A stretch of DNA of 64,000 nt from Escherichia phage rV5_ev158: sequence record LR694611; one strand, given 5' to 3'. Each line of letters starts with the position of its first letter. Positions within the stretch are counted from its first letter, which is position 1. The notes under the pieces were generated by a model. It worked only from the letters and a program-made list of their open reading frames with translations. It searched no databases and was not told the DNA's origin. The position numbers and the translations under genes were made by a program. Positions 2,518 through 58,495 of the stretch are shown piece after piece.

Positions 2518-3507
2518 TTGACGATGATGACAAAGTTAACTCTTGAGCAAATTTTAACACTAAAGCAGCAGGGATACACTAATAGACAAATTGCTCGTGA
2601 ATTTTTAGGCCGTGAGTCACGTGAGAGTTGGATCCGACTACAGCTTAAACGTGCACAAGAGAATATGTCAGAGATTGTAGGAGAAGCAACGGAGCGCTTC
2701 CTTGAAGAACACAAAGGAGCTAAAGTTTGGGTGTATGATACAGAAACATCACCAACAAACGGCTGGTTCTTTGGGCACTATAAGACCAACATTCAAACCT
2801 GCGGTATTGAAATTATGCCCTATATGCTAACTTTCGCAGGTAAGTGGTTAGACAGTCCTAGTGTGGTTGACTGCGCTCTTCCCGATTACAAAATGTGGGA
2901 TGAGGATATTCACAATGACCTCGAATTGATTCAGGACTTGTGGTATTATCGGGATAAATGTGATGTCGCAGTAGCCCACAATTCAGGTTTTGACTGTGGG
3001 TGGGCAAACCAACGATTTGCATTTCACGGGTTGCCTCCAACAAGCCCATACAAAGAGGTTGACACCCTTAAAATGATCAAGAAGGCATTCCGTTTGAATG
3101 CAAACACTTTGGAGTATGCATGCAAATACTTCCAACTTGCCCGACAGAAACTGATTGACCACACATTTGAAATGTGGATCAAGTGTGTTCATGGTGATCT
3201 TGAGGCGTTTAAACAGATGCGGGAGTACAATGTTGGTGATATCCTATCTCTGGAAGGCCTGTATTTGCTGGCACGCCCGTTTGCTAAGCAGCACCCCAAC
3301 ATGTCATTGTACTACCAGGATGAGGAGCCAAAAGTTCGTTGCCCACGCTGCGGTGGAGAACACCTTCACGAGGAAGAAGCTTTGGCGTATACTCAACTGA
3401 GTGCATTTAAAACATATCGCTGCGAAGGTTGTGGATCTGTTGTTCGTGACCGTAACAACATCCGTACCAGAGAAGAAATGAAAAACACCCTGATTCAGAT
3501 AATCTAA
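2518..3507 (+). CDS. DnaQ-like 3'-5' exonuclease (DEDDy) with N-terminal HTH and C-terminal zinc ribbon
   Basis: Exo motifs VWVYDTETS (DxE), VAHNSGFDCGW (H-N-x2-F-D) and YNVGDIL (Y-x3-D); N-terminal QGYTNRQIAREF HTH-like; C-terminal CPRCGG...CEGCG; terminator hairpin follows. Confidence 0.55.
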   Translation: MTMMTKLTLEQILTLKQQGYTNRQIAREFLGRESRESWIRLQLKRAQENMSEIVGEATERFLEEHKGAKVWVYDTETSPTNGWFFGHYKTNIQTCGIEIMPYMLTFAGKWLDSPSVVDCALPDYKMWDEDIHNDLELIQDLWYYRDKCDVAVAHNSGFDCGWANQRFAFHGLPPTSPYKEVDTLKMIKKAFRLNANTLEYACKYFQLARQKLIDHTFEMWIKCVHGDLEAFKQMREYNVGDILSLEGLYLLARPFAKQHPNMSLYYQDEEPKVRCPRCGGEHLHEEEALAYTQLSAFKTYRCEGCGSVVRDRNNIRTREEMKNTLIQII

Positions 3508-3516
3508 TCAAGTATA

Positions 3517-3540
3517 GGGAGGCTTGCGCCTCCCTTTTCC
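3517..3540 (+). terminator. Rho-independent terminator
   Basis: GGGAGGCTTGCGCCTCCC hairpin followed by TTTT. Confidence 0.6.
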
Positions 3541-3553
3541 TTTTGGAGGCACT

Positions 3554-4372
3554 TTGAGCAAGAAAGAGTCCAACGACAAATATTACACAAACCCTGAGTA
3601 TGCAGAATATCTTGTTGGTAAAGTAAAAGATAAGTATGGAAATTGTGCATACGTTGAGCCTTCTGCTGGAAGGGGTTCTTTTTCAAAACTATTTTCAGAG
3701 ATACTGTCTTACGATCTAGTACCAGATCCTGAATTTGAAGGACCAACACCGTGCATTCAGGCAAACTTCTTGGAGGTGCATCCCAAGGCAGATGTCTTCA
3801 TAGGTAACCCACCATTTGGCAAGAATTCATCTTTAGCTTGCAAATTCTTTAACCATTGTGCATCATTGCTAGAGCTTGGAGGGGCTATAGCCTTCATCTT
3901 GCCACGGACATTTGAAAAAATATTTTTTGCAAACAAACTGGACATGTCGATGCACCTTGTCTACAGTGAAAGGTGCCCTAAGAACTCGTTTCTACTTAAT
4001 GGCAAACCTTATGACGTGCCGTGTGTTTTCCAAATTTGGGAGAAAAAGGCGTGCAACAGGGATCCTGTAGAGATTGGGGAGAATAAGTTATTTTCTTTTA
4101 GCACTCCAGATGACTACGACTTCTGTGTAAGACGTGTTGGGTATAATGCTGGAAAAGTATTGGGGGAGGATGACCCAAAATCTGAAGAATCAACATATTT
4201 CATAAAATCTTTAGTTGACGGTGTTGACAGAGTGTTTGCTGAATGCTATTCTTCTTTTCAAGAAGAAGCAGGTAAGACTGCCGGAATGAAGAGTATAGGT
4301 AAGAAAGAACTACAATACATTTTGGAGACTAGGTATGATCAAAAGCATAGACTTGACCAAAGAACTTACTGA
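3554..4372 (+). CDS. N6-adenine DNA methyltransferase (gamma-class, TaqI-like motif order)
   Basis: KYYTNPEYAEYLV, then VEPSAGRGSF (AdoMet motif I-like), then FIGNPPFGK (motif IV); start placed at in-frame TTG 3554 after the terminator, GGAGG 4 nt upstream. Confidence 0.6.
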   Translation: MSKKESNDKYYTNPEYAEYLVGKVKDKYGNCAYVEPSAGRGSFSKLFSEILSYDLVPDPEFEGPTPCIQANFLEVHPKADVFIGNPPFGKNSSLACKFFNHCASLLELGGAIAFILPRTFEKIFFANKLDMSMHLVYSERCPKNSFLLNGKPYDVPCVFQIWEKKACNRDPVEIGENKLFSFSTPDDYDFCVRRVGYNAGKVLGEDDPKSEESTYFIKSLVDGVDRVFAECYSSFQEEAGKTAGMKSIGKKELQYILETRYDQKHRLDQRTY

Positions 4373-4415
4373 TGCAAAAGCTTTTGGTGAGACAGCGGTA
4401 CAAAGGGGGCAGGCG

Positions 4416-4793
4416 ATGGGACTGGCACTACCTTTCGTATTAAAAGAGCACTTTACAGATTTTCAACTTATCAAGGGTGATAAGGGAATGCTTATCCTGG
4501 AGCATAAGTTGAGTAAGAAACGCTATAAAGTTGTTTTTAATTCTAAAGCTCCAACAAAACTGGGATTCAGAACTTACAATCTTAACCCATCCTACACTAA
4601 GGGTGTTGGAAGGGTAGAACAACAGCATTTCAGTGCCAGAGCTTCTTTAGCCCCTTTGATGCTAAATTTCTCAGGGGTGGCTTTAGGATACCTTGATAAG
4701 AAAAGAGTTCTTCATGTCCGTTTCACAGACTTTGTAACGCTTCTAGCCAACAACGAGGTTGATGAAAAGGGACGTGTAAAAACAAACTTCTAA
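4416..4793 (+). CDS. hypothetical protein
   Basis: Listed ORF starts at 4335; internal ATG 4416 has AAGGGGG 6 nt upstream. Confidence 0.45.
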   Translation: MGLALPFVLKEHFTDFQLIKGDKGMLILEHKLSKKRYKVVFNSKAPTKLGFRTYNLNPSYTKGVGRVEQQHFSARASLAPLMLNFSGVALGYLDKKRVLHVRFTDFVTLLANNEVDEKGRVKTNF

Positions 4794-4820: not shown

Positions 4821-5012
4821 ATGACACTAAAGTTAACAATTCCAGACAGCTTTTCAGAAGACTTTATCCCAGAAATGATGGGTAAGATGCGATCATTGCT
4901 TGATCAGATCGAGGAAGCTGTTTGGGAAGACGATGCTGTAGTGGCTAACGAGCTGGTAGATAAGTGTAAAAGTATTATTGATGCAGTTGAAGAATACCAC
5001 GGAGGTTTTTGA
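4821..5012 (+). CDS. hypothetical protein
   Basis: ATG 4821 preceded by GGAGA; 63 aa. Confidence 0.4.
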   Translation: MTLKLTIPDSFSEDFIPEMMGKMRSLLDQIEEAVWEDDAVVANELVDKCKSIIDAVEEYHGGF

Positions 5013-31479: not shown

Positions 31480-31773
31480 GCCATGCCATTCGTTTGCATG
31501 AAAACAATTAACAAGATAACAATCGACAAGTTAATAATCTTTCGCTGGCTATGCCAGGTGACTAGGTCACCCCTTCGGGCGTTCCTATGACATAATATAA
31601 AAGCAGGGCAACTATTAGCAGATCTATAGTTGCCTTGCTTGTTATGTCATGATTAACTAAATACAAGGCAACTATGATCTGATTAATAGTTTGCAGACAA
31701 ACTATCACGGGGGTGATGGTTACTGCTTTTATATTATGTCGCGACTCCGTCGCGCCATGCCATTCGTTTGCAT
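31480..31773. repeat. 20 bp perfect direct repeats flanking a palindrome-rich 274 bp module
   Basis: GCCATGCCATTCGTTTGCAT at 31480-31499 and 31754-31773; between them a ~66 bp imperfect palindrome (31586-31652, centre AGATCT), GCAACTAT/ATAGTTGC inverted repeats and hairpin CGCGACTCCGTCGCG. Confidence 0.6.
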
Positions 31774-36526: not shown

Positions 36527-36567
36527 AACGCCAAAATAATAAAGGCCATGCAACCGCATGGCCTTTA
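36527..36567 (-). terminator. Rho-independent terminator
   Basis: 8 bp stem GGCCATGC/GCATGGCC; minus-strand transcript would have a T-rich tail after the hairpin. Confidence 0.55.
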
Positions 36568-36601
36568 TGTGATTATATTGCTGCAGGCCCTGCTAGGGGC
36601 C

Positions 36602-36952
36602 TTATTTTGCATTCTTGCCTGTATTGCCGCCACGGTACCAGCGTTTGCGGTGAAAATGGTAATAATCACCCTCGGCATTAAACATCAGATGATTTTCAAT
36701 AACCAGCTTACGAAGGTGGGCCGGATCTTGTTCCATTCTTGCCAGATTCCGGCGGCTGTTACGTAAGCGTATAAATTCCATATTCAGGCCGTTGATTGCA
36801 GCATGGATGTTAAAGTAACCACCTTTGAGACGTTCACGCATGGCGTTAAGCTCAACACAATATACAGATTTCTCACAAATCAAGGTATTAGCTAGGGCGC
36901 GGACCTGGGCAAGGGGGTTAAGCTCATTAAAGTAATATAGTTTGACTTTCAT
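36602..36952 (-). CDS. hypothetical protein
   Basis: 116 aa. Confidence 0.45.
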   Translation of the reverse strand: MKVKLYYFNELNPLAQVRALANTLICEKSVYCVELNAMRERLKGGYFNIHAAINGLNMEFIRLRNSRRNLARMEQDPAHLRKLVIENHLMFNAEGDYYHFHRKRWYRGGNTGKNAK

Positions 36953-37269: not shown

Positions 37270-37315
37270 GTCTATCACTCCTTGTTAACTGCGTGGTATT
37301 TTAACAGGGTTTAAA

Positions 37316-37359
37316 TTTACTTTATTGATGGCCCTGGAGTCAAGGCCATCTAAAAATAA
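37316..37359 (-). promoter_or_regulatory. conserved 44 bp promoter/operator-like element, copy 1
   Basis: TTTACTTTATTGATGGCCCTGGAGTCAAGGCCATCTAAAAATAA; on minus strand TTGACT -35 lies in the loop of palindrome GATGGCC...GGCCATC; about 47 nt upstream of the next minus-strand gene. Confidence 0.5.
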
Positions 37360-37362
37360 ATT

Positions 37363-37563
37363 TTACAGGCCTACAATCTCTTTGATTCGTTTAACCGCTG
37401 CCTCAGCGCCTTGGGGGTAAAAATTATGGTAACCAATCACGCGAGTGATACTAATCGCCGTTTGATGATCTTCATAGTCGCCCTTGAAGATTTCTTGACC
37501 GTCAATCAGCACGGCAATTTTTTCTTCTTTTTTGAAGTTAATAACGCGGATATTGTTGCTCAT
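37363..37563 (-). CDS. hypothetical protein
   Basis: 66 aa. Confidence 0.4.
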   Translation of the reverse strand: MSNNIRVINFKKEEKIAVLIDGQEIFKGDYEDHQTAISITRVIGYHNFYPQGAEAAVKRIKEIVGL

Positions 37564-37702
37564 TTTGTTTCTCCTTTCTGGTTTTTGTGGTGGTGGGGAT
37601 TAGCTCCCCGTTGATTGTTATTATCCACATTCCGGACCGGATTGCAACACCACGGAAGAAAAATTTTTTAAAAAGATAGGCCCCCATGATCGGGGGCCGT
37701 TC

Positions 37703-37822
37703 CTAGTTACTTACAGCGATAAAGTACATCCCTACGCCTAGCAATATTTCAAGGGCGATAATCTCAAGCCATACCATAACGCGGCGCACCTTATCGGTGC
37801 ATGGCTTATCCTTGGTTGTCAT
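37703..37822 (-). CDS. small membrane peptide, 39 aa
   Basis: GGAGGAAAGGGGGAG upstream of ATG; hydrophobic C-terminus; below ORF-track cutoff. Confidence 0.35.
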   Translation of the reverse strand: MTTKDKPCTDKVRRVMVWLEIIALEILLGVGMYFIAVSN

Positions 37823-37991
37823 CGTCTCCCCCTTTCCTCCGGGTAGTAGTGACGCGATCTACAATGGCCCCCAGGAGTCCTATCACGACACACACCACAA
37901 GAAAAATTATCTCCGCTGTTGTTCGATCCATTGTTATAAAATTCCTCAAGATCAGGCCTGAAAATAAAGCGTTCGTTATTGAATCCGTCAC
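37806..37991 (-). CDS. small membrane peptide
   Basis: Listed GTG start 37991; internal ATG 37931 would give a 41 aa TM peptide; translationally coupled to the 37703-37822 ORF. Confidence 0.3.
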   Translation of the reverse strand: MTDSITNALFSGLILRNFITMDRTTAEIIFLVVCVVIGLLGAIVDRVTTTRRKGGDDDNQG

Positions 37992-38041
37992 GCCAGGCGG
38001 CTGGCTTCAAATCTTCACTAAAGGGATTAATTAACGTGGCA

Positions 38042-38413
38042 TTATTTAAACGGTTGGCCCACATATTTTCTATTCCTCTCAAATAGGCGATCCGCCTCAG
38101 TTAAACATATCTCATGGGCTTGATCTCTGGTTTTAGCCTCATCAAAAACCTGTTGTGCCAGGCTGCAGCGTAGGGAGACTGGAAGATCACTATAATAGGC
38201 GTTGACAAACGTTTGAGCGTCGTACAGGTCTGAAAATACTTTACCCTTTCTATTATTCCCCTTGTCAACAATTGCAAGGATAACCAATACAATAGTTGCA
38301 ACCACCCCCAGGAAAATAGATATAATAAACCATAAAAAGGCGGATCTGCCCATCTTGCCAGCGATCCAGGCGTTAAACAAGGAAACCAATACAGCCAAAA
38401 TAATAAATTCCAT
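38042..38413 (-). CDS. membrane protein (two predicted TM segments)
   Basis: MEFIILAVLVSLFNAWIAG and FLWFIISIFLGVVATIVLVILAIV; listed start 38446. Confidence 0.45.
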   Translation of the reverse strand: MEFIILAVLVSLFNAWIAGKMGRSAFLWFIISIFLGVVATIVLVILAIVDKGNNRKGKVFSDLYDAQTFVNAYYSDLPVSLRCSLAQQVFDEAKTRDQAHEICLTEADRLFERNRKYVGQPFK

Positions 38414-38477
38414 TCTATGTACCTCTTTTGCAGTTCTGTTTAACAATAAGGCGGCAAATATGCCGCCTGTTACCTGA

Positions 38478-38858
38478 TTAAAAATTATCGCCGTAAATCT
38501 TTCCGCTTTCTGCCCATACCACCACGCGGGGCATACTATCCCACACGTCTTGTTTTAGATTGAGCGCGTGCAATTCTTCGGTGGTGCCCATACCAGGCAC
38601 GGGCTGATTGTATACTGCAAAACGACCACCTGCATAATCGTAGGCCAGAGTTAAATCACACTGGATCATCTTTTTGATCATGGCGTTGAGCATAGCGTTA
38701 GCCGCATACTGGTCACGTTTTAAAGGCAACTCTTTGATTAGTTTGCGATAGTTTTCAATGTGATCGCACACTGTTTCACGTGGAAGATCTTTCATGTCCT
38801 CGCGAAAGGTAACCAGGTTAAACATAACGGTGTCAATAGCTTTAGTAGTGTTTTTCAT
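38478..38858 (-). CDS. hypothetical protein
   Basis: 126 aa; upstream TTGCAA/TATATT promoter-like sequence and leader hairpin GGGGCAAGACGTTTGCCCC. Confidence 0.5.
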   Translation of the reverse strand: MKNTTKAIDTVMFNLVTFREDMKDLPRETVCDHIENYRKLIKELPLKRDQYAANAMLNAMIKKMIQCDLTLAYDYAGGRFAVYNQPVPGMGTTEELHALNLKQDVWDSMPRVVVWAESGKIYGDNF

Positions 38859-38947
38859 AATGTTTACCTCTTTGTTTTGTGTGGGGGCAAACGTCTTGCC
38901 CCTTGAGTTTTAATATAGCAGGTTTTTAGGTTATTGCAACACTTTAT

Positions 38948-39571
38948 TTATGAAAAAGTCATCTCGCCATATTCATCCACATCAAACCGCCAATCATTGG
39001 CCTCGATAAGGCCGATCAGGTTTTCGGTGGTGAATTGTTCAAGATAGGCTTGCTCCAGGTCTACGTAAACCTTGCGGGATAACTCCCGTACCGTCTCGGT
39101 GATCAGCTCTTCCAGCTCTTCAACTTTATCCTCTTGCTTGGTGGTCAGGTCTAGCCAATTGGTATCGATGCACCCGCCTATTGTGTTTTCGTGATGATAA
39201 TGGCTAAACGGGATACGTTCAACGCTGGCTGACAGTTCGCCATCATGCATTGTGCCGAACAAGTGTCTAATTAAGCGGAATTTTGTAAGCGCTTTAACCT
39301 TACGCAAGAATTTTTCTAAGTTTACATTTTCAGCACTAATTGATGCGCCGTCGCCTTGACACCAAAAGCCGGACCAATGTACTTCGGTATCTTCAAGGCC
39401 GTACTCTGGAAAAACATATTCTTTATAGTATTCAATTACACTTTCTGCGAAAAAATCCTCTCCGCTGTGTTCTTCTCTTTCGCGGACCATTTCAATAGCC
39501 TTTTCTTTTTGTTCGTCGGTCAGCACGTCGAAAGATAAATTGCAACCTGTGGTAATGTTAACGGTGGTCAT
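38948..39571 (-). CDS. hypothetical protein
   Basis: 207 aa; preceded by promoter and leader hairpin. Confidence 0.5.
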   Translation of the reverse strand: MTTVNITTGCNLSFDVLTDEQKEKAIEMVREREEHSGEDFFAESVIEYYKEYVFPEYGLEDTEVHWSGFWCQGDGASISAENVNLEKFLRKVKALTKFRLIRHLFGTMHDGELSASVERIPFSHYHHENTIGGCIDTNWLDLTTKQEDKVEELEELITETVRELSRKVYVDLEQAYLEQFTTENLIGLIEANDWRFDVDEYGEMTFS

Positions 39572-39628
39572 GATATTTTCTCCTGTTTTCTTTGTTAGTG
39601 GCGGGAAGTTTTCCCGCCTGTGTTTTTA

Positions 39629-39656
39629 ATTATACTTATTGAGATTTACTTGTCAA
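39629..39656 (-). promoter_or_regulatory. sigma70-like promoter TTGACA-16-TATAAT with leader hairpin
   Basis: Minus-strand -35 at 39651-39656, -10 at 39629-34; leader hairpin GGCGGGAAAACTTCCCGCC (39600-39618) before the RBS. Confidence 0.55.
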
Positions 39657-39906
39657 CACTATTTTTTAAATTATTGTGGCGCAAAATGTTTAAAATCTCC
39701 TCAACGTCATCAACACGGCGGCAATTTTTAAACGCTACCAATTGCCCCATGATTTTAATCACTGGGCGGCCTTGCCAGTGCCCCTGGAGAAAGCGCGCCT
39801 TGACTTTATCGGTGGAACTATCACGCCACCAAATGGCCTTGTTGTTGCAGTAGTAAAAATTATTCAGGACAACATCAACTTTATCAAAATTTTTTAATTT
39901 ACGCAT
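39646..39906 (-). CDS. hypothetical protein
   Basis: 86 aa. Confidence 0.45.
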   Translation of the reverse strand: MRKLKNFDKVDVVLNNFYYCNNKAIWWRDSSTDKVKARFLQGHWQGRPVIKIMGQLVAFKNCRRVDDVEEILNILRHNNLKNSVDK

Positions 39907-40110
39907 GGCGTTTACTCCTTTCTCTCTTTGATGTGGTTAGTATAGCTAACCTGTTTAAGATGTCAAGCTTTAAATAAAATCACTGTCAATGATATTTTTA
40001 ACGCCATAAAACGGCCCTAAGCGATGTTTTCAGGTTAAAGGGGGGCGATTGCATAGGTGGGGCCTTTTTGGCGCTTACAGGGCCAACCAGGGGCGCTATT
40101 CGTAGGATAG

Positions 40111-40139
40111 AAATAAAAAGCCCCGCACAATGGCGGGGC
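40111..40139 (-). terminator. Rho-independent terminator
   Basis: GCCCCGC...GCGGGGC hairpin; minus-strand T-run after it. Confidence 0.6.
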
Positions 40140-40147
40140 GTTGGTTG

Positions 40148-40369
40148 TTATTTGTCTTTATGGCGGTATCGTTCTGCCTGTCGTTCACGTTCCAAAAGTA
40201 GGCCAGGCAATTTACGATCATAATGATTTCGCCAGATCTTTCCAAATCTTTTTGGCTTATTCAGTTTATTGTTACGCTGGCGTCGTTCCGGCAGCTCTTC
40301 GGAATCATGAGATCGCTTTACAATCTTCTCAAAATTAATCTTCATATATTCCCCCCTTGCTAACTTCAA
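40148..40369 (-). CDS. hypothetical basic protein
   Basis: Arg/Lys-rich; alternative ATG start at 40345. Confidence 0.4.
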   Translation of the reverse strand: MKLARGEYMKINFEKIVKRSHDSEELPERRQRNNKLNKPKRFGKIWRNHYDRKLPGLLLERERQAERYRHKDK

Positions 40370-40706
40370 TATTGGCCTGAATAGCCCGGATACGCCGTTT
40401 TATAACCTCCTGATCCTTGCAATCATATCCCCAAAAGTCTACGATTTTTGCGCCTCCAGCCTTTAGGCGGTATAGTGTTTCTTGCATCTTGTAGGCCGGG
40501 ATCGGTCGCGGTGTTACCTGGTCGCCCTTCTCATTCTTGTACTTGATAATGTAGTCTTCATTGTCGTTGAATATCCAAAATGGGTATTCTGTGAGCGCGT
40601 TGCTCTCTTTTTCGTTTTTAGATTGGATCTTGTTTACAATTAAAGCCGTAGCAATAGCGCCAATAATAAAACTTGCCCCACTGATCATGTTACTTTCTCC
40701 TTTCAT
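40335..40706 (-). CDS. hypothetical protein with N-terminal TM segment
   Basis: ISGASFIIGAIATALIV. Confidence 0.45.
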   Translation of the reverse strand: MKGESNMISGASFIIGAIATALIVNKIQSKNEKESNALTEYPFWIFNDNEDYIIKYKNEKGDQVTPRPIPAYKMQETLYRLKAGGAKIVDFWGYDCKDQEVIKRRIRAIQANIEVSKGGIYED

Positions 40707-40764
40707 TGTATTGATAAACTATCTTTATAGATGGCCCTGCTACCAGGACCACCGAAAAAACAGT

Positions 40765-41010
40765 TTATTTGACGATACCGACAAAACAGATCCCGCCTTC
40801 CCCTATATAGGCAATATCGGTAATTTTATAATTTGTCAAGATCCGCGTGTTCAGCTCATTAATAAAATCTGTCATCGCGTTGGTGTAGTTGTCTTCCGTG
40901 TCTAAGGCATAATCCCAGGTGTAAACCTTTTTACGTCCGAAGCCTTTTACCATGATACGGGCGCTTTTGGTGTTGGTAGGGGCATAATATTTGGTGATTA
41001 GTGCTGCCAT
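40765..41010 (-). CDS. hypothetical protein
   Basis: 81 aa; preceded by conserved 44 bp element copy 2. Confidence 0.45.
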   Translation of the reverse strand: MAALITKYYAPTNTKSARIMVKGFGRKKVYTWDYALDTEDNYTNAMTDFINELNTRILTNYKITDIAYIGEGGICFVGIVK

Positions 41011-41053
41011 GGTTTTAACTCCTATGCATTAGTTCAGTGTTAACAGTATAAAG

Positions 41054-41097
41054 TTTACTTTATTGATGGCCCTGGAGTCAAGGCCATCTAAAAATAA
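41054..41097 (-). promoter_or_regulatory. conserved 44 bp promoter/operator-like element, copy 2
   Basis: Near-identical to copy 1; about 44 nt upstream of gene start 41010. Confidence 0.5.
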
Positions 41098-41099
41098 TC

Positions 41100-41441
41100 T
41101 TACTCGTTTTCTTCCAGCTCCGCAAGCTCTTCTTTTGCTTCTTCTAACTCTGTCTGTAATTCCTGGTATTCTTCATCGTCCTCAATATCCAGGCTGTCGA
41201 TGTAGTCGCTAAATCCGCAGCGGTAAGCGATAGGATCTAGCTCCTTGAGGATACGCGACGGAAGAAAAGAAATGTTTCCGATCATGATTTCGCCGTAGAT
41301 CTCGTCTAACCATTCATCATAGTTTTCGTCGTACTTGTCCTCGTCGATTTCAAAGGTATCGATCTTGTTCTCAAGGTCTGCGATCTGTTTTTTCAGTGCG
41401 GCAACCTGAATAGCTTTTTCTGCGGCGGTCATAGTAGTCAT
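41100..41441 (-). CDS. highly acidic coiled-coil protein
   Basis: 113 aa, Asp/Glu-rich. Confidence 0.5.
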   Translation of the reverse strand: MTTMTAAEKAIQVAALKKQIADLENKIDTFEIDEDKYDENYDEWLDEIYGEIMIGNISFLPSRILKELDPIAYRCGFSDYIDSLDIEDDEEYQELQTELEEAKEELAELEENE

Positions 41442-41492
41442 GGTGTTTTCTCCTTTTGTGTGTTCTGGGAAGTTTTCCCGTTTACGGGTTTA

Positions 41493-41520
41493 AGTATACC
41501 GATCTAAGTTAGCTTGTCAA
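41493..41520 (-). promoter_or_regulatory. sigma70-like promoter TTGACA-16-TATACT with leader hairpins
   Basis: Leader contains GGGAAGTTTTCCC / CCCGTTTACGGG hairpins (41467-41488). Confidence 0.5.
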
Positions 41521-41640
41521 TTAAAAATTTAAGAAAAATTTTGCAAAACTGTTAGCGCTACTCATTAACATTTGCGCCAGGATGTAACCGACAACGCAGA
41601 CGATAATAGTTACCTTTGTGTATTGGCGTGTAGTGCCCAT
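41521..41640 (-). CDS. small membrane peptide, 39 aa
   Basis: AAGGGGG upstream of ATG; TM-like VTIIVCVVGYILAQMLM; lies just downstream of element copy 3. Confidence 0.3.
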   Translation of the reverse strand: MGTTRQYTKVTIIVCVVGYILAQMLMSSANSFAKFFLNF

Positions 41641-41674
41641 CTTAAAGCCCCCTTTTTCGCTTAACTGAGATTAG

Positions 41675-41718
41675 TTTACTTTATCGATGGCCCTGGAGTC
41701 AAGGCCATCTAAAAATAA
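41675..41718 (-). promoter_or_regulatory. conserved 44 bp promoter/operator-like element, copy 3
   Basis: Same sequence with one substitution (ATCGATGG). Confidence 0.5.
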
Positions 41719-41720
41719 AC

Positions 41721-42125
41721 TCAATAAGTTTTTAGTACTTTCCCGTCCAACCTGTCTAGCTGGATCTCAATGGCTGCAGAAAACCTATTATAAACCACGT
41801 CGCCCATGGAATCCAACCAGTCTATGACGTTATACACTTGCTCTTTGTTCTTGCAGGTCCGGATCCGTTTCATGATGTAAGCCGGATCAATATTGGTACT
41901 CTCGTTGGTGTTCCCCTGTACCTGGTTTGCCGTATTAGCCACATCTTTAATGGCCTTTACCACCACCTGGAAGGGCTTTAAGGTGCCTTTTGCGTTCATC
42001 TCACGCGCTTTTGCGGCGCGGTTGTTATAGGTTACACAACGGCGGCAAATGTTCACTAAGTGCATGTCAATAATTTTTTCATCGTTTGCCAGTTCGTTCA
42101 TGATGCGGCGTACGTTCTTATTCAT
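41721..42125 (-). CDS. hypothetical protein
   Basis: 134 aa. Confidence 0.5.
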   Translation of the reverse strand: MNKNVRRIMNELANDEKIIDMHLVNICRRCVTYNNRAAKAREMNAKGTLKPFQVVVKAIKDVANTANQVQGNTNESTNIDPAYIMKRIRTCKNKEQVYNVIDWLDSMGDVVYNRFSAAIEIQLDRLDGKVLKTY

Positions 42126-42173
42126 GATCTTTTTCCTTTGTGCTGGCGGGAAACATTCCCGCCTTTTGTGTCT

Positions 42174-42201
42174 AGTTTACTTAAATTTTGCAGCGTGTCA
42201 A
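42174..42201 (-). promoter_or_regulatory. sigma70-like promoter TTGACA-16-TAAACT with leader hairpin
   Basis: Leader hairpin GGCGGGAAACATTCCCGCC (42145-42163). Confidence 0.5.
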
Positions 42202-43130: not shown

Positions 43131-43673
43131 TTTTGTACCTCCTCTTCAATTGTTACCTATCCTATAGCATAGGCCCACCAGGTTTGCAAGCCTTCATTCT
43201 CTCCTACCTGGTCAGTTAGGCCCTGCCAGGCTGGCCCCGCCAGGTTGCAGCGGTCAGCGCATCAGGTTAGAATTTTTTTTTTTGAAAAGTGTTGACAGCG
43301 GCCCCGCCAGGTGGCAAAATATACCTATCGAAAGGACGGCAGGCACCGGTGACGGGGGAGACAACCACCGGGGATGGGCGCTGCATGAAATGAGAACGAT
43401 TATCATTATCGTCTAAAAATTTATGCAAAAACTTCTTGCTTTCTTTGTCCTGTGTGTTACTATAATAACAAGCCGGGGCAGTAGGGGCCGGGAGACAATC
43501 ACCGGGCCTGCCCGTTATTCTGCAAACGAGAATGATTATCATTCAAAATTCTAAATGAGAACTCCTCGCATTTAATAAATTTAATTAGCACGCTAATTAC
43601 CCTACGTAACAATTTCCTATAAAATAGTATCCACTAAAATATTCCCATATAGAAATTTTAAAAATCCATTTCT

Positions 43674-43836
43674 GAAAACGAAAAATCGATTTCGTCCCCA
43701 AAAATTTCAGGTCGAGAGCCGGAACGATTTCCGGAAAATCCGATTCAGAAAACGAAAAACAGATCGAGTACTGAGAAATTTATCGAGAAAAATTTTCAGA
43801 AAATTCAATCTTTGAAACGAAAAACAGATCGAGTAC
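43674..43836. repeat. direct repeats GAAAACGAAAAACAGATCGAGTAC (two near-exact copies plus one degenerate)
   Basis: Copies start near 43674 (degenerate), 43747 and 43813; period about 66-73 bp; no convincing ORF. Confidence 0.55.
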
Positions 43837-44147
43837 TTGGAAAGCTGCGCCACAACTTCAAGGTAGTGGTTGGATTATTACTATAAAAGGTCAAGGGTAA
43901 GTGGGGGAAGTTCTAGTAGAAGGGTGTGAGCATGTGCGGGAAATCTGTAATGGTGGTCTGGAATATGGTGCAGACGATAGGATGAGTGGTTCATCTCGTC
44001 GTGCCTGCTCTGAAAAATCCATTTTAGTTTTCGATCCATTTTCTGATTTTCTAAGGATTTTAAAATATCCTGGTAGGTAAAATATCAAAAGGAGGAAATC
44101 CATTTTAGAAATCCTCCTGATCTCTGGCAACCTGATAACTTAAAATA

Positions 44148-47642: not shown

Positions 47643-47675
47643 TATACAAAAATGCCCCACCCTTTCGGGCAGGGC
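47643..47675 (-). terminator. Rho-independent terminator (repeated element, copy 1)
   Basis: GCCCCACCCTTTCGGGCAGGGC hairpin; minus-strand T-run follows; same element at 58468-58495. Confidence 0.55.
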
Positions 47676-57696: not shown

Positions 57697-58480
57697 TAAT
57701 TCTGCTCCTTACTACAGGCTCGTTTGCTAGGAATACGGCTTTTGCCCAGCCACGTGGTGTGAGGCTTCGGATCATCTTCGTTCTTGCACTCTTTCCACCC
57801 AGCTTGGCGTGTTGCATGGAATACCCGCTAACCGCGTCAACTATTTGCGGGACAGGTTTTGTGGCCGGGATTATAAATCCATTACCTATCCAGCCGCAAG
57901 TTATTTTTGGATAGGCATCACGTGGAGCTATAAATTCAGGAAACCAGGGGTTTACATCATCCTCCGGTAAATACCCGCCATAGTCAGAAGGGTGAAAACG
58001 GTAATCAGGTTTGCGCCACAGTGTGGACATAACACCCACAGGATTCTCTACATGCCACGGGCAATCGTAAATCTCTCCCAACTCTTCTGCAACCCGAGCA
58101 TCCTTTACAGCATTAATCTGGATCAGCGGGTCCTTAGCCAGCTTCTTCTTAAAGTGTGCAGCACCTGACACCGCTAAGTGGGTGCACGGAGGAAATGCAA
58201 GAACAAAGTCCGGAGCTGGGTACATGCAGAAAGTTTCCTGAGGGAACCATGGATCAATCCAATAATCTACATAGTGAATATTTGGATGATCGGTGATCAC
58301 CTCTGCATAACTGCCGTGGTCAGCACCTTCTGCGTTAAAGCACAGGCACAGATATCCAGCTTTTGCCCAGTCAATGACTGCACCGCCAGATCCGTCAAAT
58401 AGACTCCACACAACACCTTTGTGGTAGTGTTCTTTATAGATAAATTTCAATTTGCTGTCTCCTAATGCAAAAAGCCCCAC
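57686..58480 (-). CDS. C5-cytosine methyltransferase-like protein (short)
   Basis: LFDGSGG (motif I FxGxG), AFPPC (motif IV PC) and HVENPVG (motif VI ENV) in C5-MTase order; only 264 aa. Confidence 0.45.
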   Translation of the reverse strand: MGLFALGDSKLKFIYKEHYHKGVVWSLFDGSGGAVIDWAKAGYLCLCFNAEGADHGSYAEVITDHPNIHYVDYWIDPWFPQETFCMYPAPDFVLAFPPCTHLAVSGAAHFKKKLAKDPLIQINAVKDARVAEELGEIYDCPWHVENPVGVMSTLWRKPDYRFHPSDYGGYLPEDDVNPWFPEFIAPRDAYPKITCGWIGNGFIIPATKPVPQIVDAVSGYSMQHAKLGGKSARTKMIRSLTPRGWAKAVFLANEPVVRSRINGK

Positions 58481-58495
58481 CCTTTCGGGCAGGGC
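58468..58495 (-). terminator. Rho-independent terminator (repeated element, copy 2)
   Basis: Identical GCCCCACCCTTTCGGGCAGGGC hairpin. Confidence 0.55.

Follow-up and report, generated by a model that had tools for sequence, protein, structure and literature searches.

In the genome of Escherichia phage rV5_ev158 (LR694611), a short repeated element occurs four times among small genes that are all encoded on the minus strand. We examined the element in a 64,000-nucleotide stretch of this record, hereafter called the window. The four copies, designated c1 to c4, make up the whole family in this genome and all lie inside 4.4 kb. On the minus strand, which is the sense strand of the genes, every copy folds into the same bipartite hairpin, and a cis-acting RNA structure, not a DNA operator, is the best explanation for the element. 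It is probable that the hairpin is a selected sense-strand RNA structure of some function. A more specific proposal, drawn by analogy and to which we give about an even chance, is that the four copies are intercistronic mRNA processing or stability signals of the type recognized by ribonuclease III (RNase III).

A first-pass annotation of the window had listed three near-identical copies of a 44-bp promoter- or operator-like element, and these are real. Their 24-nt core, GATGGCCCTGGAGTCAAGGCCATC, occurs exactly three times where no occurrence is expected, and with up to three mismatches allowed it is absent from all 100 dinucleotide-preserving shuffles. The repeat unit shared by c1-c3 extends to approximately 49 nt, with 94-100% identity. 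A suspected degenerate fourth copy was borne out at 40717-40765, 65% identical in register, as was the position of the copies, which begin 0-3 nt past the stop codon of a minus-strand open reading frame (ORF) and lie approximately 26-40 nt ahead of the next start codon. Neither a mismatch search nor a covariance-model search found a further copy in the remaining 74 kb of the genome.

Read on the sense strand, the sequence of the element is TTATTTTTA-GATGGCCTTG-ACTC-CAGGGCCATC-AATAAAGTAAA(C/T)T. When 76-nt sense-strand RNAs were folded with RNAfold, all four copies gave one hairpin of 51-55 nt, composed of an A/U lower stem of 11-13 bp, a 2x3-nt internal loop, a G/C upper stem of 10 bp and a tetraloop. 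The lower stem has 11 bp in c1-c3 and 13 bp in c4, and the helix comes to approximately 22 bp overall. The internal loop is fixed and asymmetric, with 2 nt on the 5' side and 3 nt (NAU, of which AU is invariant) on the 3' side. The palindrome recognized in the first-pass annotation is present, but its description as a 7-bp repeat around a 10-nt loop is not apt: as RNA it forms a 10-bp stem with one U.G pair and a 4-nt loop, and it is the upper half only of a longer hairpin that reaches past the 44 bp. The lower stem is built from the last bases of the upstream stop codon together with unique flanks outside the 44-bp repeat, and it includes the hexamer proposed as a -10 box. In c1 the first nucleotide of the hairpin is the final base of the UAA stop of the 66-aa gene, and in c4 the lower stem takes in the UAA stop of the 81-aa gene.

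Predicted stabilities of the four copies range from -23.5 to -29 kcal/mol, with z-scores of -4.8 to -6.8, and none of 200 shuffles was as stable. The antisense strand reaches z-scores of only -2.6 to -3.4 (-2.62 for c1), because several of the pairs are G.U on the sense strand and become A.C mismatches on the other.

For comparative analysis we used 57 copies from 16 sequences, comprising 11 GenBank genomes, two IMG/VR contigs and three metagenome contigs. RNAalifold predicted the same bipartite consensus from a MAFFT alignment of the 35 distinct copies. Standard pairs are formed by 97.4% of cells, a value that falls to 36-56% once the partners are slid by 1-3 columns; when all 57 copies are aligned to the covariance model, 97.0% are paired (100% in the upper helix) and slid partners reach 37-54%. 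Both sides change at four lower-stem pairs (G-C/A-U/G.U, U-A/C-G, U-A/G.U/A-U and A-U/U-A), and the three upper-stem pairs that vary all do so by wobble only. The observed covariation score was reached by none of 500 shuffles. Comparison of orthologous copies shows 2 changes in the 80 column-loci of the upper stem, neither of which breaks a pair, and 15 in the 24 column-loci of the tetraloop, a rate per column 25-fold higher. The T/C difference in TAAA(T/C)T is matched by an A or G at its pairing partner in the nonrepeated upstream flank, and the two positions co-vary.

Copy c4 has many differences from c1-c3 and no TTGAC, yet both of its stems are fully paired by means of G.U pairs or double substitutions, with compensatory differences at four lower-stem pairs. 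Its internal loop is UC / UAU, and its upper stem is GGUGGUCCUG-GUAG-CAGGGCCAUC with two G.U pairs. At the DNA level the c4 dyad is broken at two of seven positions, both of which are G.U-compatible on the sense RNA only. The two haplotypes of c4 in our sample differ by C-G versus U-A.

The copies are each downstream of a canonical promoter and upstream of an operon terminator (Table 1), and are therefore intercistronic inside operons; polycistronic transcripts probably cross the element, judging from this layout. Promoter P194 is followed by the 134-aa gene, c3 and a 39-aa ORF. The second operon runs from P192 through the 113-aa gene, c2, the 81-aa gene, c4, a 123-aa gene and a gene resembling T7 gp1.1 to a terminator, and the third from its promoter through the 66-aa gene, c1, a 102-aa gene and a 116-aa gene to terminator t177. 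The genes that flank the elements are ORFans, and Pfam and PHROG searches with ten neighbouring proteins returned no regulator, nuclease, DNA-binding or candidate RNA-binding domain. In the c2/c4 operon, a 66-aa protein encoded at 40151-40348 on the minus strand matches Pfam PF08200, 'Bacteriophage 1.1 protein' (E = 2.5e-11). T7 gene 1.1 sits just behind the RNase III site R1.1. A long leftward unit of hypothetical early-type genes is one of four transcription units described for rV5 (PMC3606486), and the genes around the elements belong to it.

Table 1. Coordinates of the repeated element, its parts and the promoters and terminators of the operons that contain it (window positions).
Feature	Position	Strand	Evidence
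24-nt core GATGGCCCTGGAGTCAAGGCCATC	37327-37350, 41065-41088, 41686-41709	+	exact matches
Copy 1 (c1), bipartite RNA hairpin	37313..37363	-	RNAfold -25.2 kcal/mol, z -4.81; covariance model 80.1 bits
c1 lower stem	37363-37353 / 37323-37313	-	
c1 internal loop	37352-37351 (UA) and 37326-37324 (AAU)	-	
c1 upper stem and tetraloop	37350-37327	-	
Copy 2 (c2), bipartite RNA hairpin, between 113-aa and 81-aa genes	41051..41101	-	RNAfold -23.5 kcal/mol, z -5.14; covariance model 88.2 bits
c2 upper stem and loop	41088-41065	-	
Copy 3 (c3), bipartite RNA hairpin, between 134-aa gene and 39-aa membrane-like ORF	41672..41722	-	RNAfold -27.5 kcal/mol, z -6.61; covariance model 87.4 bits
c3 upper stem and loop	41709-41686	-	
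Copy 4 (c4), diverged, same architecture	40714..40768	-	RNAfold -29.0 kcal/mol, z -6.81; covariance model 80 bits
Early promoter TTGACA-16-TAAACT (rV5 P194)	42174..42201	-	consensus scan; rV5 Table S4
Early promoter TTGACA-16-TATACT (rV5 P192), 5' hairpin 41467-41479	41493..41520	-	consensus scan; rV5 list
Early promoter TTGCAA-16-GATAAT, 5' hairpin	37620..37647	-	consensus scan
Intrinsic terminator GCCCCGCCATTGTGCGGGGC plus U-tract, ends c2/c4 operon	40120..40139	-	scan; Murica annotation
Intrinsic terminator (rV5 t177), ends c1 operon	36539..36568	-	scan; rV5 list

We propose RNase III because a helix of approximately 22 bp with a small internal loop, placed between early cistrons, is the anatomy of the T7 signals. 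In the mechanism envisaged, host RNA polymerase would transcribe the early operons of the minus strand, each copy would fold into its regular helix, and host RNase III would recognize the helix as it does the five processing signals of T7 early mRNA. The cut is predicted at the internal loop, on the 3' side between NAU and AAAG (...GGCCAUC-NAU/AAAG...). Cleavage would part the cistrons, and the upstream message would keep the G/C hairpin to protect its end; the outcome would be differing stability or translation of the adjacent ORFan genes. Both the reader and the cut site are thus putative, and are argued from likeness to T7.

The known requirements of the enzyme can be compared with the element feature by feature. 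RNase III needs an 11-bp helix from loop to target and approximately 22 bp for full contacts (PMC1540722). Both lengths (at least 11 bp, and approximately 22 bp) are present, given by the 10-bp upper stem plus one mismatch position and by the 11-13-bp lower stem, which is coaxial with it across the 2x3-nt loop. The distal box is UA/UG at positions 2-3 from the loop-closing pair (PMC1540722). The register of c1-c3 runs G-C, U-A, U.G, C-G, C-G, G-C, G-C, U-A, A-U, G-C, A.A, and since U-A and U.G stand at positions 2-3 their distal box is canonical and in register. The proximal box has G-C at position pb1, A-U or U-A at pb2, A-U at pb3 and A-U or U-A at pb4, and G-C or C-G at pb2 or pb4 is inhibitory (PMC1540722). 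In c1-c3 the four positions are U-A, A-U, G-C and an A.A mismatch as in natural R1.1, so that neither antideterminant position (pb2, pb4) holds an inhibitory pair. At the middle-box position corresponding to U12:G27, G-C is mildly activating (PMC1540722), and G-C is the pair found here. An internal loop at the target leads to a single-strand cut and a stabilizing 3' hairpin (PMC3867540), and all copies have such a loop. Additionally, the RNase III sites mapped in E. coli are over-represented in intergenic stretches inside transcripts (PMC6212723), the same class of position as that of the copies.

We also folded the five T7 early intercistronic regions, which gave a near-identical family with upper stems of 9-10 bp containing a U.G pair, loops of 4-5 nt and an internal loop. 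The coordinates of the T7 sites are those that we take to be given by Dunn and Studier (1983), and only R1.1 was cross-checked against the base identities in PMC1540722; the T7 records NC_001604 and V01146 have no RNase III sites in their feature tables. Like the rV5 element, R0.3, R0.5, R1, R1.1 and R1.3 are a repeated hairpin family that separates early cistrons in an E. coli phage and is transcribed by host RNA polymerase; in both families a G/C-rich upper stem with a U.G pair stands on an A/U-rich lower helix, with an internal loop at the target. The register of the UA/UG distal box is shared, as is NAU before the 3'-side cut (predicted here, known in T7), and the c2/c4 operon contains the T7 gene 1.1 homologue. 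Unlike the T7 sites, to which it has no sequence homology, the rV5 element has a longer and more regular lower stem (11-13 bp), a smaller internal loop (2x3 nt) and a partly canonical proximal box; its cleavage is predicted only, and rV5-type phages are large myoviruses with no T7-like RNA polymerase or kinase context.

Several observations weigh against RNase III or against a selected structure altogether. The distal box of c4 is U-A, C-G and so lacks the U.G pair, and its pb2 is G.U; on both counts the rules derived from uR1.1 predict a lower reactivity for c4. The proximal box of c1-c3 is only partly canonical, with U-A at pb1 where G-C is canonical and G-C at pb3 where A-U is canonical. 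Natural RNase III substrates vary in the proximal box. A literature search covering any Vequintavirus found no transcript mapping or cleavage record. A strict hairpin filter passes 30 long hairpins in the 64 kb, on both strands (a permissive scan gave 231 matches and was uninformative), and because long hairpins alone are not distinctive, the case rests on covariation and shared architecture, not on stability. The independent evolutionary events are few (c1-c3 versus c4, the two c4 haplotypes, and the flanks of c1 versus those of c2 and c3), so that the shuffle statistics overstate significance and are used here as support, not as probabilities. Template switching or gene conversion may keep palindromes neutrally. 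In phage Gotham, c3 (L022, 4392-4437) is missing GGGCC (5 nt) from its 3' arm and can no longer form the hairpin; loss of a copy may thus be tolerated by the phage unless this is an assembly error. Lastly, TTGAC is invariant in all c1-c3 copies but one (a c3 with TTGATA), and two of its bases fall in the loop; this may point to a constraint in addition to pairing. In metagenome contig L034 (4950-5028), c1 has an A-to-G change and an extra G in the 3' arm; it and Gotham c3 may be natural loss-of-structure alleles or assembly errors at the hairpin.

Other explanations operate at the level of DNA, beginning with the promoter proposed in the first-pass annotation. The arrangement TTGACT-18 nt-TAAACT or TAAATT is present on the minus strand, with TAAACT at 41702-41673 and 41081-41052 and TAAATT at 37343-37314. 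The sigma-70-like hexamers are thus as described, and the Gotham annotation also called promoters here with PhagePromoter, but c4 has no -35, the pair scores 9/12 with an 18-nt spacer (a class that totals 46 sites against 28 +/- 5.9 in shuffles per 13 kb) and pairing explains both hexamers. They may act as a weak promoter or simply follow from the sequence of the hairpin, and are compatible with a role as RNA; a weak promoter is possible because T4-type cassettes with a stem-loop over the -35 are known (PMC2839356). In these cassettes, called PeSLs (promoter-early stem-loop), an AT-rich tract and a sigma-70 promoter are accompanied by a stem-loop able to overlap the -35, and they sit between ORFans of hyperplastic regions, where indels have chimeric junctions (PMC2839356; PMC4122927); the stem-loop falls into five positional subclasses, of which -35 overlap is one (PMC2839356). 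We regard it as unlikely that the rV5 element is such a cassette, in which a weak sigma-70 early promoter would have its -35 overlapped by a stem-loop that attenuates, or insulates against, transcription arriving from upstream, and conservation would serve mainly a portable regulatory linker for cassette shuffling, a reading compatible with an RNA signal. All of the DNA-level behaviours of PeSLs are seen here. As in the PeSLs of T4-type phages (RB49/phi1, T4/PST, KVP40/nt-1), a conserved intergenic motif of about 50-100 bp lies among small ORFans in a plastic early region, the upper stem-loop overlaps TTGACT, and related phages differ by cassette indels with a single chimeric element at the junction. 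The hexamers of c1-c3 and the PhagePromoter calls point the same way, as do the use of TAAACT as the accepted -10 of rV5 promoter P194 and the near-invariance of TTGAC in c1-c3, where the sixth base, which matters least in a -35 box, is free to vary. However, the full structure is kept in c4 without a -35, the '-10' and the AT-rich tract are the two co-varying arms of the lower stem, so that pairing accounts for their sequence, and a score of 9/12 with an 18-nt spacer is at chance level for such AT-rich DNA. PeSL promoters are near-consensus and active, whereas the hexamer pair of c1-c3 has its 18-nt spacer with TTATTTTTA upstream and c4 has none; the canonical promoters of the region score 10-12/12 with spacers of 16-17 nt, and a 5' hairpin follows the five that were inspected, an arrangement absent from all four elements. 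The PeSL stem-loop is a short G(n)-loop-C(n) terminator and the structure here is a bipartite helix of approximately 22 bp with RNA-level covariation, which by its sequence has no U-tract, is a poor intrinsic terminator and falls outside the terminator scan calls. The lineage, too, is Vequintavirinae and not Tevenvirinae. A MotA-type or phage-RNA-polymerase promoter was dropped, as no such machinery is known in rV5 and the conserved positions track base-pairing.

The tight conservation had also been taken as evidence of a shared DNA operator, which did not survive comparison of the copies: what is conserved is pairing in the sense RNA, including that of nonrepeated flanks, and an operator is unsupported because c4 keeps the structure without TTGAC and with the DNA dyad broken at two of seven positions, both compatible with pairing on sense RNA only. 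Regulation of a sigma-70 promoter by a dimeric repressor bound to the GATGGCC/GGCCATC dyad would fit the perfect 7-bp dyad of c1-c3 and its overlap with the putative -35. It would have no need of pairing that tracks far outside the dyad, 3 bp into the 'loop' and 11 or more bp outward with compensatory changes; the dyad centre is the most variable part, no regulator was identified among the ten neighbouring proteins, and we hold this explanation to be extremely unlikely. A Rho-independent terminator is scarcely credible, even though Murica carries 45-nt 'terminator' features exactly on c1 and c4 and the copies, like intrinsic terminators, place a stable G/C hairpin after a stop codon. The upper stem is followed by AAUAAAG and the lower stem by AAACCC, UAUACU, AAUCUC or CAAUAC, the only U-run is on the 5' side as part of the stem, and the terminator reading was rejected because there is no U-tract, in contrast to the real terminators of the region, which have a 3' U-tract and end operons. 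A consensus scan finds true terminators nearby and none of the four copies, which are also omitted from the ARNold/MFOLD list of 20 terminators of the rV5 authors. It is unlikely, in our estimate, that the structured RNA is read in another way, either as a REP-like barrier to 3'-to-5' exonucleases after an RNase E cut in the A/U-rich downstream tract or as the site of a phage RNA-binding regulator. The structural and covariation evidence is the same as for RNase III, a place right after stops inside operons is that of REP-type stabilizers, and the neighbours have no assigned function, so an unrecognized RNA-binding protein is possible; but a 10-bp G/C hairpin is enough for an exonuclease barrier, which leaves the 11-13-bp A/U stem, the 2x3 loop and the UA/UG box unexplained, and the flanking proteins have no candidate RNA-binding domain. 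As RNA, REP/BIME sequences can shield an upstream message from 3' exonucleases. The REP/BIME of E. coli are likewise imperfect palindromes repeated at intercistronic or 3' positions in operons; they occur as many dispersed copies, with an associated RAYT transposase and a conserved GTAG tetranucleotide beside the palindrome. They have no sequence similarity to the rV5 elements, which are phage-borne and present in four copies, with a longer helix and RNase III-like features; the rV5 copies have no flanking GTAG, and there is no transposase among the annotated genes of the other 74 kb. A MITE- or REP-type mobile element was dropped in view of the four clustered copies and the lack of a transposase. 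A functionless selfish or neutral palindromic repeat, kept uniform by recombination, gene conversion or template switching, would explain the loop variants common to paralogous loci, the repeat-mediated deletions, the 5-nt deletion in one copy and the limitation of the family to one genus. It is nevertheless very unlikely: c4 is too diverged (65%) for conversion with c1-c3, yet all its pairs are kept through at least seven substitutions, including double compensatory ones, its haplotypes differ as C-G versus U-A, the lower stem draws on nonrepeated flanks, and the pairing is strand-asymmetric.

Recombination between the copies has left traces in related genomes. In phages ECP26 and ime and in an IMG/VR contig (L012), a single chimeric element with the left flank of c3 and the right flank of c2 is found, and the 621-bp interval carrying the 39-aa and 113-aa genes is missing. 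Phage 241Ecol014PP has a c2/c4 chimera, with the crossover within CAGGGCCATC[A/T]ATAAAG, and lacks a 335-bp interval with the 81-aa gene. The loop variants ACTT, ACAC, ACCC and ACGC each occur at two or more paralogous loci in different genomes, a distribution that points to exchange between copies. The near-identity of c1-c3 is likely explained, at least partly, by recombination or gene conversion. With approximately 50 bp of near-identical DNA in direct orientation, c1-c3 also serve as crossover points, at which the phage recombination system deletes, inserts or shuffles gene cassettes and homogenizes the copies. In rV5_ev146 (L026) only c2 and c4 are present and other small ORFs stand in place of the c3/c1 segments (3500-4600; beyond 6000), a sign of further cassette replacement. 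A joint reading, in which the element is a processing signal for RNase III or another reader, a weak internal sigma-70 promoter and a dedicated cassette linker at once, is improbable; transcripts from the internal promoter would then start past the hairpin and so escape processing. If true, such triple use would be a PeSL-like shuffling system of independent origin outside the T4 group, based on an RNase III site instead of a terminator.

The 5.3 kb around the element is 100% identical to Escherichia phage rV5_ev168 (LR694610.1), with window position 36900 matching position 111025 of that record, and 90-96% identical to approximately 120 other Vequintavirus records. A sensitive BLAST search of 50,697 phage records with a 56-nt query located the element in 121 records, 120 of them of Vequintavirus type, at approximately three places per genome. 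An exact-pattern scan of IMG/VR with CAGGGCCATCNATAAAG returned 18 loci, of which only two contigs were Vequintavirus; the others are at the level of chance for 16 specified bases and were disregarded. A metagenome scan added three new Vequintavirus contigs only. At 30 loci where the 113-aa gene has a distant homologue, a covariance-model search found no further members, and folding of the sequence downstream of these homologues gave nothing similar except an unrelated AU hairpin in metagenome contig L045. On the sequence records searched, the element family is confined to one genus, Vequintavirus. The L045 hairpin (approximately 4821-4880), which is A/U-rich, has 26 bp and a predicted -25 kcal/mol, lies 24 nt past the stop of a 113-aa-gene homologue (61% identity over 51 aa) and has no sequence in common with the rV5 element. 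Seventeen GenBank records (MG0656xx) carry the name 'Campylobacter phage', with C. jejuni as the host, and share 94-95% identity in this region with E. coli Vequintaviruses; they are probably mislabelled or contaminant genomes.

The element is undescribed in the rV5 paper and in the other literature searchable here. It is in neither of the rV5 tables (33 promoters and 20 terminators), and genome annotations are inconsistent: Murica has two copies as terminators and Gotham has promoters. Searches of Rfam gave only sub-threshold chance matches, such as rhtB with 23 bits against a gathering score of 55. In the rV5 RefSeq record (NC_011041; L025, 3136-3420) a 285-nt feature labelled 'Rho-independent terminator' covers almost the same bases as ORF196, with a 3-nt offset, and is likely an annotation slip.

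Other regulatory sequences were observed in the window. Five canonical sigma-70 promoters between 37 and 42.3 kb have 16-nt spacers and scores of 9-12/12, and each is followed, approximately 9-14 nt past the -10, by a G/C hairpin (37591-37613, 38883-38903, 39600-39618, 41467-41479 and 42145-42163 in minus-strand sense; for example GGCGGGAAAACUUCCCGCC). These hairpins would cap the 5' ends of transcripts and resemble either the PeSL subclass with a stem-loop downstream of the -10 or a 5' mRNA stabilizer. A noncoding stretch at 43540-43880, perhaps the box labelled 'non-coding' on the rV5 genome map, contains 2.5 copies of TACTCGATCTGTTTTTCGTTT, a GATC-containing sequence, spaced 65-74 nt apart and iteron-like in appearance. 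Two near-identical terminator hairpins, GCCCCACCCTTTCGGGCAGGGC, at 47649-47675 and 58469-58495, lie 10.8 kb apart and correspond to rV5 t213 and t232; they are a second duplicated regulatory sequence in the early region. Farther away, at 31480-31773, an exact 20-nt direct repeat (31480 and 31754) flanks a perfect 14-bp hairpin at 31588-31681 that folds on both strands.

Phages of the rV5 type are common candidates for therapy and biocontrol, and the sole regulatory catalogue for them (rV5, 2013) misses this element. We know of no study of early gene expression in rV5-like phages. A processing signal and a recombination linker both have close precedents, in the T7 R-sites and in PeSLs respectively. 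If the reader is RNase III, early operons processed in the manner of T7 would extend to a large myovirus, and the view of the element as structured RNA opens a concrete test of post-transcriptional control in the rV5-like group. The chimeric junctions are direct evidence that short regulatory repeats drive the gain and loss of early ORFans outside the T4 family, and such repeat-driven turnover bears on predicting the host-takeover gene content of rV5-like phages and on engineering them.

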